Source of the DNA: Rhodobacter capsulatus SB 1003 | Lineage (GTDB): Bacteria > Pseudomonadota > Alphaproteobacteria > Rhodobacterales > Rhodobacteraceae | Length of the DNA stretch: 32,000 nucleotides | Direction: 5' to 3' | NCBI RefSeq assembly: GCF_000021865.1 | Contig: NC_014034.1 | Location: 3,330,001-3,362,000 of the forward strand | Shown: positions 4,436 through 23,289 of the stretch, one piece after another | Layout: each line of letters opens with the position of its first letter | How positions within the stretch are numbered: the stretch's first letter is position 1 | Program-made: the position numbers and the translations under genes | The notes under the pieces: model-generated | The model's input: only the letters and a program-made list of their open reading frames with translations | Told to the model about the DNA's origin: nothing | Database searches by the model: none

Positions 4436-4521
4436 GCGGGCGTGGCGAAATGGTAGACGCATGGGACTTAAACTCCCTCGGAGGGACCTCCATGCCGGTT
4501 CGAGTCCGGTCGCCCGCACCA
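4436..4521 (+). tRNA. tRNA-Leu (anticodon UAA), class II with long variable arm, CCA encoded
   Basis: Acceptor stem GCGGGCG/CGCCCGC followed by A and CCA. Anticodon loop is CTTAAAC (UAA). Long variable arm GGAGG-GAC-CTCC. T-arm is GCCGGTTCGAGTCCGGT. Confidence 0.9.
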
Positions 4522-16524: not shown

Positions 16525-18122
16525 CGCCCCCGGATCATCGCAGCCGCGCGTTCGGCGATCATGATGGTGGGCGCATTGGTGTTGCCGCCAATGAGGCTGG
16601 GCATGACCGAGGCATCTACGACCCGCAGCCCCTCGATCCCGCGCACCCGAAGTTGCGGATCCACCACCGCTATCGCATCGGTGCCCATGCGGCAGGTGCC
16701 GACCGGGTGATAGATCGTGTCGGCGCGCGCGCGGATATCGGCCATCAGCCCGGCCTCTGACCCGTCATGCGGATAAAGCCTGTCGCCCCGCCAGGGCGCC
16801 AGGGCCGCCGCGCCCACGATCTCTTCCAGCATCCGCGCCGCCCGCAGCATCAGGGCTTCGTCGCGCGGATCGGCCAGAAAGGCCGGGTCGATCAAGGGCG
16901 CCTTGCGCGGGTTCTTCGACGCCAGCCGCACCGTCCCCCGCGATTGCGGCCGCAGCACGCAGATATGCGCCGACCAGCCGTCCGCGACATGCAGCTTGCG
17001 CATGTGGGCATCGACAATGCCGACGACGAAATGGATCTGCAGATCGGGCACCGTGACCCCGGGCGCAGAGCGCAAAAACGCCCCCCCCTCGGCCATGGGC
17101 GAGGCGAAGAGCCCCTCGCCATGCCGCATCCAGCCGCCCGCGGCCCTGGCCAGCCGCCACAGCCCGCGCGGATTGAGCCCCACGACATCGCGGCGGGGCG
17201 AAAAATGCGAAATCGTGTAATCCAGATGGTCCTGCAGGTTTGCCCCCACCCCGGGCAGATCCTGCACGACATCAATGCCCAGATCGCGCAGATGCGCCCC
17301 CGGCCCGATACCCGAGAGCATCAGAAGCTGCGGCGAGCCGAAAGCGCCTGCCGAGAGGATCACCTCCCGCGCCGCCTCCAGCCGCAGCCGGTGCCGCCCC
17401 TGCCGCACCAGCGCCCCGGTGGCGCGCCCCTCGGAAATCAAGACCTTTTCCGCCCGTGCCCCGGTCAGCACGGTCAGATTGGGCCGGTCCATCACCGGAT
17501 GCAGATAGGCCGCCGCGGCGGAACAGCGCTCGCCCTTTTTCGGACCATCCCAGAATTGCGTGACCTGAAAGGGCGCGGCCCCCTCCTGACACGCGCCGTT
17601 GAAGTCGTCGGTTTCCGGGCAGTCCACCGCGCCGCAGGCCTGCACGAAAGCGCGGGTGATCGGCCGCGGGCGGCGCTGATCGCCCACCTGCAACGGGCCA
17701 TCGGCCCCATGATGCGCGGACGCCCCGCGCATGTTGCGTTCGGATTTCAGAAACCACGGCTGACAGGCGGCCCAGTCCCAGCCCACAGCCCCCTCGGCCG
17801 CCCAACGGTCGTAATCCGAGGGATGACCGCGCACATACAGCATCGCATTGATCGCGGACGAGCCGCCCAGCCCCCTGCCCCGCGGCTGAAACCCCCGCCG
17901 CCCGTTCAGCCCGGGCTGCGGAACGGTGTGCAGCGCCCAGTTGTGGGCGTAAAGATACCCGGGCACCAGCGCCGCGACCAAGGCAGGCGCCCGCACCAGA
18001 ATATCCCGCGCCGCATCGCCCGCCTCGACCAGACAGACGCGCGTGGCCGGATTCTCGCTCAGCCGCGCCGCCAGCACCGACCCGGCCGAGCCGCCGCCGA
18101 GAATGACATAGTCGAAATGCAT
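16521..18122 (-). CDS. GMC-family FAD oxidoreductase (choline/alcohol dehydrogenase-like)
   Basis: [21 protein letters not shown] (GxGxxG), [14 protein letters not shown], and C-terminal [12 protein letters not shown]...[29 protein letters not shown]. Its stop overlaps the rhomboid stop within CTAG (16521-16524). Confidence 0.9.
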
Positions 18123-18185
18123 CAGGCTCCCCCGTTTCCGAGAGAGCCTAACCGGTTTTTCACATCCGCAAAGCGTGACTTCAGG

Positions 18186-20606
18186 TCACTTCCGCTGCAC
18201 GCCGCCGGTGGCCTTGGTGACCTTTTCGACGACCTTGGCCGAAACCGCCTCGATCTCGGCATCGGTCAGGGTCTTGTCGCGCGGCTGCAGCCGAACGCTC
18301 AGCGCGATCGACTTCTTGCCCGCGCCCATCTGCTCCTCGGCCTTGGCGCCGGTGAACTGGTCAAAGACCGAAACCGCCTCGATCAGCGCCTTGTCGGCGC
18401 CGTAAGCCGCGTTCACCGCCGTCAGCGCCTCGACACCCGCATCGACGACAAAGGCGAAATCGCGCTCGACCGCCTGCAGATCCGACAGCGCCAGCGCAGG
18501 CCGGGTCGGGGTCTTGGCTTTCGGGAAGGGCACGGCTTCGATCCAGACGGTGAAGGCGACCGCTGGCCCCTTCACCCCCATCTCGCGCAGCACCTTGGGG
18601 TGAACCTCGCCAAAGCTGGCCAGCGCATTCGGCCCCAGCGCGATGGTGCCCGAGCGGCCCGGATGGAACCAGCCCGCCACCTTGCGGTTGATCTGCACCC
18701 GCGCGGGGGCGCCGATGGCGGCCAGCACGGCCTCGACATCGGCCTTGGCGTCATAAAGATCGACCGGACGGCGCGAGGCCCAGGGGTCGCGCGGCGCCGA
18801 AGCGCCCACGAGCAGCCCCGCCGCCTGCAATGCCTGATCCCCCGGCTCGCCGCCGCTGAAAGCCGGACCAACCTCGAAGAGCGCCAGATCCGCAAAGCCG
18901 CGCGCCTGATTGCGCGCCGCCGCCTGCAGAAGCCCCGGCAGCAGATCCGGGCGCAGATGCGTCATCTCCGACGAGATCGGGTTTTCGATCCGCGTCGCCT
19001 CAAGCCCGCCACCGAAGAGCGCCGCCGACTTGGCGTCGATGAAGCTGTAGGTCACGCATTCATTGTAGCCCAGCGCCGCAATCGTGCGCCGCGCGGTGCG
19101 TTCGCGGGTCTGGATCGGCGTCAGCACCGGACCGGGAACGCCCGTGGTTTCGCGCGCCATCGGACGGCCGACGAGCTTCGTCAAGGACGCAATCCGCGCC
19201 ACCTCCTCGACCAGATCGGCCTCGCCCAGCACATCGGGCCGCCAGCTGGGCGGGCAGGCCATGTCGCCCTCGAAGGTGAAACCGAGCGCCGTCAGGGTTT
19301 CGCGTTGCGTCGCCTCGGGGATCTCCATCCCGACAAGGCTGATGACCCGGGCGGGGTCGAGCTTGTAGGCGCGTTTGGTATCGGGAACGGCGCCGTCCAT
19401 CACCACATTGGATGCCTCGCCGCCGCAGAGGTCGAGCACCATCTGCGTCGCCAGTTCCAGCCCCGGCAGGGTGAACTCCGGGTCCACGCCACGCTCGAAC
19501 CGATAGCGCGCATCCGAGTTGATCTTCAGCGCGCGGCCGGTGGTGGCAATGGTGATCGGGTCCCAATAGGCGCTTTCAAGGAAGACATCGACCGTCTCCT
19601 CGGTGCAGCCCGAAAGCTCGCCGCCCATGATCCCGGCAAGGCTTTCCGGCTGCGCATCGTCGCAAATCACCATCTGACCGGGGCGCAGGGTGTAGGTCTT
19701 GCCATCGAGCGCCAGCAGTTCCTCGCCGCCCTTGGCAGGGACAATCCGCAGGTTCCCCGCCACCTTCGCCGCATCAAACACGTGCAGCGGGCGGTTCAGG
19801 TCATAGGTGAAGAAGTTGGTGATATCGACGAGCGCCGAGATCGGCCGCAGCCCGATCGCCCGCAGCCGCGCTTGCAGCCAGTCGGGGCTCGGCCCGTTCT
19901 TGACGCCACGGATCAGACGGCCAGCAAAGAGCGGGCAGCCCTTTTCCTTCAGGGTGGCGTCAATCTCCACCTTGATCGGGCTTTCAAACCCGCCCGGCAC
20001 GGCCTCGATTTCGAGCGGCTTCAACCGACCCAGACCGCGCGCGGCCAGATCACGGGCCACACCGCGCACGCCCAAAGCGTCGGGGCGGTTCGGGGTGATC
20101 TTGATGTGGATCATCGGATCGACGGCCTCGGGGCGGTTTTCCGCCAGCCAGTCGATGAATTTGCAGCCGACCTCGGAATTCAGGCTGTCCTCGGGCAGTT
20201 CGATGATGCCGTTATGCTCGTCGGACAGCTCCAGCTCGCGTTCCGAGCACATCATGCCGTGGCTTTCAATGCCGCGGATCTTGCCGATGCCAAGCGTGGT
20301 GTCGATGCCCGGCACATAATCGCCCGGTTTCGCCAGCACGACGGTGATCCCCGCCCGCGCATTCGGCGCACCGCAAACGATGACCTTTTCGCCCTCGTCG
20401 GTCAGCACGCGGCAGACCCGCAGCTTGTCGGCATCGGGGTGCTTTTCGGCGTGCAGCACCTTGGCGATGGTGAAGGGGGCGAGTTTCGCGCCCGGGTTCA
20501 CCACCTCCTCGACCTCAAGGCCAAGGTCGGTGAGCGCATCGGCGATCTCGGTGACCGAGGCCTCGGTCTCGAGATGGTCTTTCAGCCAGGAGAGGGTGAA
20601 TTTCAT
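18186..20606 (-). CDS. pheT: phenylalanine--tRNA ligase beta subunit
   Basis: 806 aa: MKFTLSWLKDHLET..., tRNA-binding domain, B3/4, B5 and FDX-ACB domains in the usual order. Own SD GGGAG at 20614-20618. Confidence 0.95.
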   Translation of the reverse strand: MKFTLSWLKDHLETEASVTEIADALTDLGLEVEEVVNPGAKLAPFTIAKVLHAEKHPDADKLRVCRVLTDEGEKVIVCGAPNARAGITVVLAKPGDYVPGIDTTLGIGKIRGIESHGMMCSERELELSDEHNGIIELPEDSLNSEVGCKFIDWLAENRPEAVDPMIHIKITPNRPDALGVRGVARDLAARGLGRLKPLEIEAVPGGFESPIKVEIDATLKEKGCPLFAGRLIRGVKNGPSPDWLQARLRAIGLRPISALVDITNFFTYDLNRPLHVFDAAKVAGNLRIVPAKGGEELLALDGKTYTLRPGQMVICDDAQPESLAGIMGGELSGCTEETVDVFLESAYWDPITIATTGRALKINSDARYRFERGVDPEFTLPGLELATQMVLDLCGGEASNVVMDGAVPDTKRAYKLDPARVISLVGMEIPEATQRETLTALGFTFEGDMACPPSWRPDVLGEADLVEEVARIASLTKLVGRPMARETTGVPGPVLTPIQTRERTARRTIAALGYNECVTYSFIDAKSAALFGGGLEATRIENPISSEMTHLRPDLLPGLLQAAARNQARGFADLALFEVGPAFSGGEPGDQALQAAGLLVGASAPRDPWASRRPVDLYDAKADVEAVLAAIGAPARVQINRKVAGWFHPGRSGTIALGPNALASFGEVHPKVLREMGVKGPAVAFTVWIEAVPFPKAKTPTRPALALSDLQAVERDFAFVVDAGVEALTAVNAAYGADKALIEAVSVFDQFTGAKAEEQMGAGKKSIALSVRLQPRDKTLTDAEIEAVSAKVVEKVTKATGGVQRK

Positions 20607-20625
20607 AGGAGTGCTCCCGATTTCA

Positions 20626-21425
20626 TCGCAAGATTAACAAGCCCAACACACGACACAACGATCAAATTTAATTATCTCCGCAGACCACTTTGTTGTTCGC
20701 AGTTAAAAAGACGAAAATCCTTCGAACCCGGCAGCCAAAGGCAGCCCCTTTTGACTTCGAAAAAGACAAGGTACCCGTCGAAGCAAAATAATAGAAAATC
20801 GAGAACGCAATCGTCAAATAGTATACATAGTTTCTCCAGTCATCCGGCAGATCAGCGGCAGCACCGGGCGCCATTAACTCAAAGAAATCGCACCAAAGGA
20901 CACCCGATGACAAAAACGTTGCAACCACAAACAAAAATCTGGCAGCATCGAAAACGGCCCTTCTCTTCTCAACCCGAAGAGCATGACTTTCTAGCAAGCG
21001 CGCAGACCACTCCTGATCAGATAAAACTCTTGACCCGAATTTAAAACTATTATCCGGCGTCATCGATGCTATAAATTCAGCTATCGAGGCGCAAATTAAG
21101 AATATTAATAAAACCTGAATTACATAACCGTAATGCTGAAAAAAGAAAAACAATGATGGGAGGTAAATTTTCAGACTACTCGCATGCTGAAGCCACGCCA
21201 CAATTCCTGATGCGCCGAATGCCCCCGCCACCCACGAAAATACTTTTCTTGCCGCACCTTTATTCTCACTCTGAAAATTGCTATAAAGTTTGAAGTAAAC
21301 ATAGTGCGTAACGCTTGCTTCATCGGCGAGCCATTCAGCTAGGTTCTTAGTTCTCTGCATCGAATTCGACTTAGTGTCACTCATTTTCCCTCCAAAAAAC
21401 TCTTGATACAGCCACAATAAGTAAC
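20626..21425. other. AT-rich compositional island (about 32-45 % GC) inserted between pheS and pheT
   Basis: Hand counts give 27/60 GC for 20641-20700 and 19/60 for 21061-21120, against about 66 % in the pheS and pheT bodies. Boundaries coincide with the pheS stop (21426) and the pheT SD region. Confidence 0.85.
20668..21384 (-). CDS. hypothetical 4-TM membrane protein (orphan, foreign composition)
   Basis: A 238-codon ORF from ATG 21384 with SD GGAGGG (21388-21393). The track's 253-aa version starts at GTG 21429, overlapping the pheS stop. An open frame this long in AT-rich DNA is unlikely by chance. Hydrophobic segments lie at about residues 47-65, 73-106, 146-166 and 185-203. Confidence 0.7.
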   Translation of the reverse strand: MSDTKSNSMQRTKNLAEWLADEASVTHYVYFKLYSNFQSENKGAARKVFSWVAGAFGASGIVAWLQHASSLKIYLPSLFFFFQHYGYVIQVLLIFLICASIAEFIASMTPDNSFKFGSRVLSDQEWSARLLESHALRVEKRRAVFDAARFLFVVATFLSSGVLWCDFFELMAPGAAADLPDDWRNYVYYLTIAFSIFYYFASTGTLSFSKSKGAAFGCRVRRIFVFLTANNKVVCGDN

Positions 21426-22508
21426 TCACTTACTCAACCCCCCGAACACCGTCGGCAGGTCCAAGGCCGCGAAACCGTAGTGTTTCAGCCAGCGCAGGTC
21501 GCTCTCGAAGAACGCCCGCAGATCCGGGATGCCGTATTTCAGCATCGCGATCCGGTCGATGCCGACGCCGAAGGCGAAGCCCTGATATTCGGTCGGATCG
21601 ATCCCGCCCGCCGCCAGAACCTTGGGGTGCACCATGCCCGAGCCGAGGATTTCCAGCCAGGAATTGCCCTCGCCGATCTTCAGCTGGCCGCCTTCCCAGG
21701 AACAGCGGATATCCACCTCGGCCGAGGGTTCGGTGAAGGGGAAGTGGCTGGCGCGGAAACGGAGTTCGACCGAGGGCACCTCGAAGAAGGTCTTGCAGAA
21801 TTCCTCCAGCACCCATTTCAGGTTCGCCATCGAAATGTCGCGGCCGATCGCCAGACCCTCGACCTGATGGAACATCGGCGCGTGGGTCTGGTCCATGTCC
21901 ATGCGGTAGACGCGGCCCGGCGCGATCACGCGGATCGGCGCGCCCTTGGCCTGCATGGCGCGGATCTGCACCGGCGAGGTATGGGTGCGCAGCACATGCG
22001 GCGGGCGCGGGTCGGCAGCGTCGCGGGCCATGAAGAACGTGTCATGCTCCTGCCGCGCCGGGTGTTCCGGCGCGATGTTGAGCGCGTCGAAATTGTACCA
22101 GTCGCTTTCCACCTGCGGGCCTTCGGCGACGGCAAAGCCCATATCGGCGAAAATCGCGGTGACTTCGTCCATGACCTGGCTGACCGGGTGGATCGTGCCC
22201 GCCCGGCGCGGACGGCCGGGCAGCGTCACATCAAGCCATTCCGATTTCAGCCGGGCATCCAGCGCCGCATCGGCCAAAGCCTCTTTCTTCGCGCGCAAAG
22301 CGGCGTCGATCTCGTCCTTCAGCCGGTTCAAGGCCGCGCCGGTGGTGGTGCGTTCCTCGGGCGTCATTTGCCCCAGTTCACGCATCTTCAGGCTGATCTC
22401 GCCCTTCTTGCCAAGGGCAGCCAGACGCAGCTCCTCAAGGCTCGCCTCATCCGCGGCGGCCGCGATGCCTTCGAGATATTTCGCCTTGAGCACATCGAGC
22501 GTGGTCAT
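21426..22508 (-). CDS. pheS: phenylalanine--tRNA ligase alpha subunit
   Basis: 360 aa with class II aaRS motifs: [68 protein letters not shown]. Confidence 0.95.
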
Positions 22509-22632: not shown

Positions 22633-22998
22633 TTACGCGGCCGCGGCGGCTTTGGCCTGGGCAACGATGGCCGCAAAGGCCTCGGGCTCGTGGACGGCCA
22701 GATCGGCCAGAACCTTGCGGTCCACCTCGATCCCGGCAAGCGCCAGACCGTTGATGAAACGCGAATAGGTCATTTCCAGATCAATCGCGCGCACGGCGGC
22801 GTTGATGCGCTGGATCCACAGCGCGCGGAAGTTGCGCTTGCGCTGCTGGCGGTCGCGCGTGGCGTATTGCATCGCCTTGTCGACAGCCTGGGTGGCGGTG
22901 CGGAAGTTGCGCGAACGGGCCGAGTAGTAGCCTTTCGCCTTCTTCAGGACTTTCTTGTGCGAGGCGTGAGTGACCTTGCCGGATTTGACGCGGGACAT
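22633..22998 (-). CDS. rplT: 50S ribosomal protein L20
   Basis: [42 protein letters not shown]... is canonical L20. Confidence 0.95.
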
Positions 22999-23014: not shown

Positions 23015-23215
23015 TCAGCGGTTGTAGGGCATGTATTTCTTGACGATCTTCGCGTCCGCATCGGACAGGATCATCGTGCCCGCGCTGTCGCGGATGAACT
23101 TGGTCGAACGCTTGATCATGCCGTGGCGTTTGCCGGCCGGACCCGCGATGACCTTGCCGGTCGCCGTGAATTTGAACCGCTTCTTCGCAGCGGATTTGGT
23201 CTTCATCTTGGGCAT
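23015..23215 (-). CDS. rpmI: 50S ribosomal protein L35
   Basis: [37 protein letters not shown] is canonical L35. I chose ATG 23215 with SD GGAGA; the 13 extra N-terminal codons in the track are discarded. Confidence 0.9.
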
Positions 23216-23289
23216 TTTCATCTCCTTTTCGAGAGTGAACGCACGACTCGGCATGCCACTGTTGGCCGGCCGTGCGGGATAGATGCGGG

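Follow-up and report, generated by a model that had tools for sequence, protein, structure and literature searches.

The operon that encodes the two subunits of phenylalanyl-tRNA synthetase (PheRS) is interrupted in Rhodobacter capsulatus SB 1003 by an AT-rich segment of 819 nt, which holds a single gene, here called orfX, between pheS and pheT. The locus lies in a 32,000-nt stretch of contig NC_014034.1 (positions 3,330,001 to 3,362,000, hereafter the window). Comparison across the order suggests that the segment is one cassette of a hypervariable single-gene slot, located exactly between the pheS stop and the pheT start in Rhodobacterales, whose products would function in conflict at the cell envelope. 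This explanation, with the function included, is favored with moderate confidence, and the part of it that concerns the slot and the replacement of its contents is considered highly probable. Across the order, few single-gene positions are as variable as the pheS-pheT junction.

The insert (20607-21425) has a GC content of 0.436. The remainder of the window, analyzed in 300-nt windows, has a mean GC content of 0.667 (standard deviation 0.036) and a minimum of 0.56, so that the insert is the only dip. The GC contents of orfX at the first, second and third codon positions are 0.44, 0.42 and 0.46, respectively; the third-position value (GC3) of pheS and pheT is 0.84. At the composition of the insert, the probability of an open frame of 238 codons is ~7e-7. 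None of 2000 shuffles reached this length (maximum 191 codons), and the other five frames of the insert contain 6-19 stops each. Thus, orfX is a real protein-coding gene of foreign-looking composition. An earlier interpretation made from the DNA letters alone (the sequence-only reading) had described a sharp AT-rich insert with a 700+ nt open frame unlikely to arise by chance, which these values bear out. The boundaries that it gave for pheS, pheT and the open reading frame (ORF), an alternative GTG overlapping the pheS stop and the Shine-Dalgarno sequences (SD) of orfX and pheT were all found in the sequence. It was also correct that there is no integrase, transposase or tRNA within ±5 kb of the slot, no meaningful flanking repeat, and no terminator-like hairpin between orfX and pheT, pheT being reached by read-through of the co-oriented orfX. 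On the opposite strand there is a 1425-codon open frame (window 16767-21044, +) antisense to pheT and a GMC oxidoreductase gene. This frame is the usual artefact of stop-codon-poor high-GC DNA, and its termination within the AT-rich cassette illustrates the switch in composition.

The junction was resolved in 65 cases, which comprise 64 fetched loci with pheT inside the fetched flank and the R. capsulatus locus of the window itself (L001). Fifty-six of the 65 junctions are occupied, in Paracoccaceae and in Roseobacter-group genera alike. The content is of low GC in 39 junctions and of host-like GC in 17, and nine junctions are empty or shorter than 200 nt. At the empty sites pheS overlaps pheT as ...AAATGAAATTC...; for comparison, the pheS-pheT gap in E. 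coli is 14 nt. The breakpoints of the slot coincide exactly with the stop of pheS and the ATG of pheT; precision to the nucleotide was seen at the left junction, and the right junctions vary between loci. In 31 of the 56 occupied junctions, the start codon inside the pheS stop overlap (GTGA) opens an ORF of 80 or more codons, and in 13 of these 31 the stop of the ORF also overlaps the pheT ATG (ATGA). At least one transmembrane (TM) segment is predicted for 22 of the 31 products. The GTGA terminus of pheS tracks low-GC occupancy (31/38 versus 5/27 loci; Fisher p = 6e-7, uncorrected for phylogeny). Because the cassettes are co-oriented with the operon, lack terminators and in most loci begin at the GTGA overlap, often ending at the ATGA overlap, they are plugged into both the transcription of the operon and its translational coupling. 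When metagenomes were scanned with the 21-mer of the left junction, four contigs were recovered, two of them with new exact-fit cassettes and none with a further relative of orfX.

The contents of the slot are diverse. The 49 ORFs examined form 8 multi-member clusters and 21 singletons, or about 29 unrelated families. Pfam recognized YrhK in five ORFs, DUF2513 in five, and DUF4760, a cupin, a PemK/MazF toxin and a DEDDh exonuclease in one each. No surface-polysaccharide or pilus gene was found among these ORFs; the cassettes are single ORFs of 90-250 codons. Two recurrent, divergent families are referred to below as family A, with an N-terminal TM helix and a helical bundle, and family B, with a DUF2513-like winged helix and a C-terminal TM helix. 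A search of 5.8 billion proteins found 12 relatives of family A, all in Rhodobacterales, and a search of phages gave no match to it. Four relatives from other genera could be placed (Leisingera, Phaeobacter and two Ruegeria), and each of them is in the pheS-pheT interval. The slot is the only location in which the orfX family and family A were found.

Close relatives carry different genes at this position. Three genomes labelled R. capsulatus (SP18, SP108 and SP36) have a PheS 99% identical to that of the window and flanks of 92-100% nucleotide identity. In place of orfX, these genomes encode a 154-aa orphan, a 229-aa protein of family A and a 135-aa DUF2513 protein, one in each, so that four lineages of the R. 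capsulatus complex have four unrelated cassettes. Similarly, the Ruegeria-like loci L087 and L095 share their flanks and a resident hydrolase-like gene adjoining pheT; directly after pheS there is a family A cassette in one and a family B cassette in the other. Since these close relatives have different cassettes between near-identical flanks, the content has been replaced and has not diverged in place. Exchange between genera is indicated by the cassettes of Albidovulum litorale and Defluviimonas denitrificans (L032/L070), for which the synonymous divergence (dS) is 0.10 as compared with 0.55 for the adjacent pheS. The difference points to a recent intergeneric transfer with a crossover close to the cassette.

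Three independent loci hold a partial second copy of the pheS 3' end within the slot, with a length of 44 codons in L093/L094, 32 codons in L098 and 21 codons in L044. The gene order in L098 is a first cassette, the 32-codon remnant, a second cassette encoding a DUF2513 protein, YrhK and pheT. In L093/L094, the full pheS (...CTCAGTCGCTGA) is followed by a 424-aa orphan, a HigB/HigA-like pair, the 44-codon remnant, a DUF2513 cassette and pheT. The terminus of the full pheS is of the host type, and that of the remnant is of the cassette type (...GGGGGGTTGAGCGGGTGA) and is overlapped by the DUF2513 cassette. The remnant is older than the insert at the adjoining complete pheS junction. The stacked cassettes are each preceded by their own pheS remnant, which argues that an incoming unit brings a pheS 3' end with it and enters on the pheS-proximal side. 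The orphan and the pair in this locus (L093:1449-3366, and likewise in L094) resemble HigB(Gp49) and HigA(HI1420) in the case of the pair, have no Pfam match in the case of the 424-aa protein, and are all of host-like GC.

It is proposed that cassettes are turned over by recombination anchored in the highly conserved sequence of pheS (and pheT), without a dedicated recombinase. A double crossover, the second in pheT, would replace the cassette. A crossover anchored in pheS and combined with an illegitimate right-hand join would add a new cassette on the pheS-proximal side. Addition of this kind would resemble homology-facilitated illegitimate recombination, in which a one-sided homologous anchor is combined with an illegitimate join and which de Vries and Wackernagel reportedly described in 2002 from experiments on natural transformation. 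It would account for additive insertion beside the pheS anchor with partial duplications of variable length. It is not known to serve as the routine loading route of a natural hypervariable locus.

The alternative to this mechanism is that the cassettes are minimal site-specific mobile elements, which enter an attB site in the 3' end of pheS with the aid of a recombinase encoded elsewhere in the genome. In favor of such elements are the duplicated pheS 3' ends that flank stacked cargo and the nucleotide-precise left junction. New units enter on the promoter-proximal side as they do at an integron attI, and one DUF2513 gene outside the slot adjoins a tyrosine integrase. However, no integrase or recombinase domain was found in the cargo of any slot, and a search for Phage_integrase domains within ±5 kb in three R. 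capsulatus loci was also negative. The remnants of 21, 32 and 44 codons differ in length, and therefore there is no fixed core site; the right junctions vary as well. No attC-like inverted repeat was found in 20500-21550 and no hairpin at the end of the window cassette, and no pheS 3' remnant is detectable in the window insert or in most single-cassette loci. Because the remnant lengths differ and no recombinase was found in the cargo or nearby, recombination anchored in pheS is favored over a site-specific system, which is judged improbable.

The question of whether the slot proteins have a function at all was also considered. The cassettes might be functionless spacer ORFs, that is, frames kept open only for the passage of ribosomes from the pheS stop to the pheT start while the amino acid sequence drifts. 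The exact overlaps at both ends in 13 loci, the absence of codon adaptation and the lack of a recognized family for most products are in accord with this explanation. AT-biased mutation could lower the GC content at unconstrained sites, and spacer ORFs would account for the orphan status and for a GC3 of ~0.5. However, the ratio of nonsynonymous to synonymous substitution (dN/dS) is 0.30 for the L032/L070 cassette pair and 0.08-0.13 for the conserved residents of the slot, and falls within 0.08-0.30 in every pair close enough to measure. At the level of sequence comparison, these ratios demonstrate purifying selection on the slot proteins. Moreover, motifs and TM layouts are kept at 26% identity, and the family A protein gave a confident AlphaFold model (mean predicted local distance difference test score, pLDDT, 83). 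The recognized domain DUF2513 is present in full; position 1 of its Pfam model is aligned with residue 2 of the ORFs when these are translated from the overlapping GTG, and therefore a recognized family has been grafted in exactly at the start codon. An open frame is not needed in the window, where pheT begins 61 nt past the orfX stop and has an SD of its own. Finally, drift cannot yield four unrelated genes between 99%-identical flanks. Spacer ORFs are thus an unlikely explanation.

Not all occupants of the slot behave alike. The variable cassettes have a GC3 near 0.5 in every genus, and in the conserved residents (YrhK and the multi-TM genes of Cereibacter and Thioclava) GC3 follows the host. 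In several genera a small membrane protein of the YrhK family adjoins pheT, downstream of the variable cassette (L009:6485-6823, L011:6115-6390, L017:6115-6390, L065:6829-7119, L071:6814-7104, L098:5132-5458); L084:6715-6903 is probably another member. The YrhK proteins are 55-90% identical, with near-host GC3 and a dN/dS of ~0.08, and YrhK appears to be a stable resident of the pheS-pheT intergenic space.

The protein encoded by orfX is WP_131618327.1, which apart from the annotated start is the same as ADE86876.1 ('membrane protein, putative', strain SB 1003). In a word-indexed search of 5.8 billion proteins it found only its own cluster, represented by 188 contigs that all have this R. capsulatus context. 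One further relative, designated P0005 (E = 3e-4), was obtained when 1.84 billion representative proteins were searched exhaustively with phmmer. This protein has 235 aa and 27% identity to the orfX product (pairwise BLASTP E = 4e-9). The two share their length, the order of hydrophobic segments and an N-terminal motif, AEWLADExSxTH[YF]xYF[KR]L. P0005 is encoded on a metagenomic contig of another Rhodobacterales organism, whose PheS is 86% identical to that of the window. Its gene is directly 3' of pheS, begins at a GTG overlapping the pheS stop (GTGA) and has a GC content of 0.417 versus 0.634 for pheS. A leader of the orfX type is absent there. The N-terminus of P0005 (MSETRQ) aligns with the MSDTKS that begins at the ATG of orfX, and ATG 21384 is therefore likely to be the native start as far as the alignment of the two sequences can indicate.

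A cytoplasmic N-terminal helix and about four TM helices (roughly aa 46-66, 76-106, 145-165 and 184-204) are predicted for the orfX product. By the positive-inside rule the protein would reside in the inner membrane with both termini inside and the basic central loop in the cytoplasm. The AlphaFold2 model, made from an alignment of two sequences, is all-helical and unreliable (pLDDT 48.9). The four TM segments proposed in the sequence-only reading are thus only partly upheld, since two segments pass a strict hydropathy cut-off and four are obtained only when P0005 and the AlphaFold helix layout are taken into account. The weak two-fold architecture that it had proposed was not detected, the halves aligning no better than shuffles (z = -0.07). 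A relationship to a slot family with four TM segments (L023/L025/L091) was also tried and rejected (hhalign probability 0.1%).

The orphan status of orfX, also anticipated there, is confirmed by searches of several libraries. No Pfam-A family was matched by the orfX product or P0005 at E<=10 or E<=1, SLATT_1-6 and DUF4231 included, and the orfX product has no Pfam match to DUF2513, YrhK or DUF4760, the families of other slot occupants. No family was found in PADLOC-DB 2.0 or in PHROGs (E<=10 for both), the only NCBIfam match was noise (E = 0.24), and PDB sequence profiles gave none. Searches with tblastn gave no match in 50,697 phage records (E<=1) or in 72,556 plasmids, and there are no relatives in IMG/VR. 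The earlier suggestion of a SLATT/DUF4231-type protein accordingly finds no support, and neither SMODS, SLOG nor TIR-type partners are present among the neighbors. The same searches of PADLOC on the one hand, and of PHROGs, phage records and IMG/VR on the other, lend none to an abortive infection (Abi) factor or to a superinfection-exclusion or other phage gene.

According to the sequence-only reading, orfX was horizontally acquired cargo. In its simplest form, a single gene from a low-GC donor would have landed once and been retained since it could not be deleted without harming the expression of pheT. The foreign-looking composition (GC 0.436, GC3 0.46), the orphan status and the absence of orfX from the sister lineages, which came to light in the comparison of junctions that had been recommended (the position holds other genes in SP18, SP108 and SP36), are what a one-off acquisition would produce, and the description of orfX as a foreign-looking, lineage-specific gene stands. 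A singular insertion does not. Other low-GC genes occupy the same junction in most genera of the order, 56 of 65 junctions being filled by about 29 families, and no donor, phage or plasmid relative was found. The only homolog of orfX is in the same slot of a different genus, which places orfX in a slot-associated pool and not among outside cargo. It is a reasonable inference that orfX is parked where loss is impossible and expression is constant. However, the frequent replacement among close relatives means that the content of the slot is anything but fixed or locked in. One-off acquisition is largely refuted already and is regarded as very unlikely. A role of the cassette proteins in PheRS function, such as attachment of the enzyme to the membrane or control of the PheS:PheT ratio, is suggested by the strict linkage to pheS and pheT with translational coupling, but is barely credible given about 29 unrelated families, empty sites in several genomes, unrelated genes of host-like GC (a cupin, a hydrolase, a toxin-antitoxin pair) at the same place, and the lack of resemblance of any cassette to a known domain associated with aminoacyl-tRNA synthetases.

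The hypervariable slot is therefore retained as the explanation of the locus. In this model orfX would be an allele in a polymorphism whose diversity is maintained by frequency-dependent selection. Such selection at the envelope, which has also been proposed for replacement flexible genomic islands (PMC4033161), is suggested by four features in combination: the occupants are small, unrelated envelope proteins, and they are replaced among close relatives, exchanged horizontally and conserved by purifying selection within each type. The cassettes may serve in envelope-level conflict, either by excluding phage or gene-transfer agent (GTA) particles or by conferring immunity to membrane-targeting toxins, a role put forward only tentatively. 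The unit consisting of pheS, cassette and pheT, which measures ~4.3 kb, may travel by GTA, and such transfer is plausible because the unit is close to the GTA payload size. RcGTA packages ~4 kb, and GTA-like elements are widespread in Rhodobacterales. In its most specific form, the model holds that exchange at a pheS-pheT 'expression socket' is integrase-free and ORF-precise, draws on a low-GC pool of envelope proteins largely confined to the slot, may be carried by GTA, and maintains a frequency-dependent repertoire for immunity or exclusion. Taken with all of these elements, the model is speculative and probably not correct in every part. No publication on a variable pheS-pheT junction or on orfX was found in open-access papers and preprints, and a hypervariable socket within an essential operon has apparently not been described.

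Several observations weigh against this explanation. With regard to function, orfX and nearly all cassettes match no defence, Abi or phage library; a scan of the 49 slot ORFs with the defence library PADLOC returned one generic DEDDh exonuclease only. Searches with the family A fold gave only generic resemblances to four-helix bundles (best E 0.046 in the PDB and 0.006 among viral structures, all template-modelling scores below 0.5). The confinement of the pool to the slot concerns two families, that of orfX and family A. A DUF2513 relative outside the slot is located on an unrelated contig beside a tyrosine integrase and a ParE-type toxin-antitoxin pair, and another occurs in a Pasteurella phage. 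Some cassettes have therefore been recruited from mobile elements. A steady GC3 of ~0.5 is not explained if the cassettes are long-term residents of high-GC hosts. The window cassette is overlapped at neither end, having its own SD and a 61-nt trailer, and hence coupling is not universal. The link to GTA is argued solely from size and taxonomy. Furthermore, the sample consists of the 80 best PheS matches from species-representative genomes together with a few look-ups and is not a census, and the statistics are uncorrected for phylogeny.

An invariant tract at the 5' end of pheT is likewise not predicted by the slot model. Its sequence is shared by the four lineages of the R. capsulatus complex, in which the remainder of pheT varies at ~1 site in 9, and the chance of such a tract is ~4e-10. 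The last 60 nt of pheS in the same lineages have about twice the average density of single-nucleotide polymorphisms and no invariant tract. The pheT tract is specific to the R. capsulatus complex and is not seen in other genus-level pairs; it could reflect recombinational homogenization or nucleotide-level constraint. For the order as a whole, special conservation of the start of pheT was considered and rejected. Conservation there is only mild (third-position identity 0.83 for nt 1-30 versus a baseline of ~0.65), as at an ordinary gene start.

Among known systems, replacement flexible genomic islands, the diversity of which has been attributed to pressure from phages (Lopez-Perez, Martin-Cuadrado & Rodriguez-Valera 2014, PMC4033161), are the closest concept. 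As in these islands, the pheS-pheT slot is at a fixed position and holds non-homologous genes in close relatives, exchange would occur by homologous recombination in conserved flanks, and the products are mostly directed to the envelope. The islands are, however, multi-gene clusters of tens of kb (O-antigen, glycosylation, pili) that lie between operons, whereas the slot accepts one ORF of 90-250 codons, placed with nucleotide precision between the stop and start codons of an essential operon of two genes and drawn from a low-GC pool that seems to be largely confined to the slot. The slot also resembles integron arrays in its stacking (L098, L093) and its diverse, largely orphan content, and its single-ORF cassettes may likewise be promoterless, be expressed from an upstream promoter and be added at the promoter-proximal end. 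Unlike integrons, it has no IntI integrase, no attI/attC sites (attC being checked in the window alone) and no fixed recombination core, and its borders are the translation signals of essential genes and not recombination sites. The apparent arrival of a replacement pheS 3' end with the incoming DNA, with the old end left as a remnant, is reminiscent of elements that enter the 3' ends of tRNA and tmRNA genes, but here the target is protein-coding, no integrase accompanies the cargo and the length of the duplication is not fixed.

In P. aeruginosa, the core defence hotspot cDHS1 adjoins pheT, ihfA and tRNA-Pro (Johnson et al. 2023, PMC10250203). The slot resembles it in having variable cargo between conserved core genes, and the shared operon neighborhood is a coincidence. 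In contrast to the slot, which splits pheS from pheT and in which almost no cargo matches a defence model, cDHS1 is downstream of the operon beside a tRNA gene and contains recognizable multi-gene defence systems. The P2/P4 hotspots are further core defence hotspots with variable cargo between conserved core genes.

Taken by itself, orfX is an ordinary orphan; it is the slot that would surprise specialists in genome evolution. Essential, tightly coupled operons for two subunits are assumed to be among the most conservative places in a genome, and the pheS-pheT junction is here highly variable. If confirmed at the pangenome scale, the slot would be a clean natural model for the insertion of new genes into core operons, and for their expression there, with no dedicated recombinase. 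It would also yield dozens of uncharacterized small membrane proteins whose turnover points to functions in conflict or immunity, a testable candidate for the benefit of GTAs in Rhodobacterales, and a convenient site, already validated in nature, at which single genes could be expressed constitutively in R. capsulatus and related bacteria. Should the socket model prove true, the junction would constitute a hypervariable locus of a new class, as well as a natural substrate for exchange by GTA.

The features of the window locus are listed in Table 1. The genes rpmI, rplT, pheS and pheT form a conserved gene string, which provides the context for read-through transcription, and orfX is probably co-transcribed with them constitutively; a GMC oxidoreductase gene and a rhomboid protease gene complete its surroundings. 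The last codons of pheS (...GGGGGGTTGAGTAAGTGA) constitute the left border of the slot. Two direct repeats 45 nt apart delimit the leader of orfX: GTGAGT at the stop of pheS and ATGAGT at the start of orfX. The trailer is less structured than shuffled sequences (z = +2.35). No terminator is present to either side of orfX, and its SD is a strong one.

Table 1. Coordinates of the pheS-pheT slot and adjoining features in the window.
Feature	Position	Strand	Remarks
rpmI	23015..23254	-	upstream, co-oriented
rplT	22633..22998	-	upstream, co-oriented
pheS (PheRS alpha subunit, 360 aa)	21426..22508	-	upstream border of slot
SD-like G-run	21443..21438	-	supplied by last codons of pheS
Alternative GTG	21429..21427	-	overlaps pheS stop as GTGA; in frame with orfX, would give 253 aa
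orfX leader	21385..21425	-	41 nt, pheS stop to orfX ATG; in frame with GTG 21429
orfX SD (GGAGGG)	21393..21388	-	within leader
orfX, slot cassette of R. capsulatus sensu stricto	20668..21384	-	238 aa, sole co-oriented ORF
orfX trailer	20607..20667	-	61 nt, orfX stop to pheT ATG; unstructured
pheT SD (GGGAG)	20618..20614	-	within trailer
pheT (PheRS beta subunit, 806 aa)	18186..20606	-	ATG is right border of slot
pheT first 191 nt	20416..20606	-	100% identical in four R. capsulatus-complex lineages with four cassettes

Promoter-like sites are not in significant excess in the insert. A sigma-70-like match, TTGACG-18-TATTAT (10/12; window 20788-20817, -), is located in the 3' part of orfX and directed towards pheT. 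The number of such matches is not above the shuffle expectation, and AT-richness may be sufficient to explain this one, which could nevertheless serve pheT as an independent promoter. The only Rfam/ARAGORN match in the window is a tRNA-Leu (anticodon TAA; 4436-4521, +), which is far from the slot and unrelated to it. The slot is bracketed by a 13-nt direct repeat (12/13 identical; window 20577-20589 and 21480-21492), which reads CTGGCTGAAA[G/C]AC on the coding strand, one copy being 17-29 nt into pheT and the other 52-64 nt ahead of the stop codon of pheS. This repeat reflects a W-L-K coding motif shared by pheS and pheT and is probably a coincidence.

A few of the other loci deserve comment. 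In a metagenome-assembled genome of Rhodobacterales (L047:6085-6474), a PemK/MazF-type toxin gene follows the pheS stop directly, with no antitoxin upstream and ~230 nt separating it from pheT. The operon is fully split in many genomes of Paracoccus and in some others, where multi-gene content of host-like GC separates pheS from pheT by 2-4 kb or by more than 5 kb (L042, L043, L052, L055, L056, L061, L063, L083, and loci such as L053 from Paracoccus denitrificans, L020 and L075). Lastly, pheT in L002:5779-8199 (GCA_052362925.1, CP198942.1) has a 1-nt deletion in a C-run at nt 1824, with only a 131-aa C-terminal fragment called. Because the gene is essential, this frameshift is almost certainly a homopolymer assembly error.

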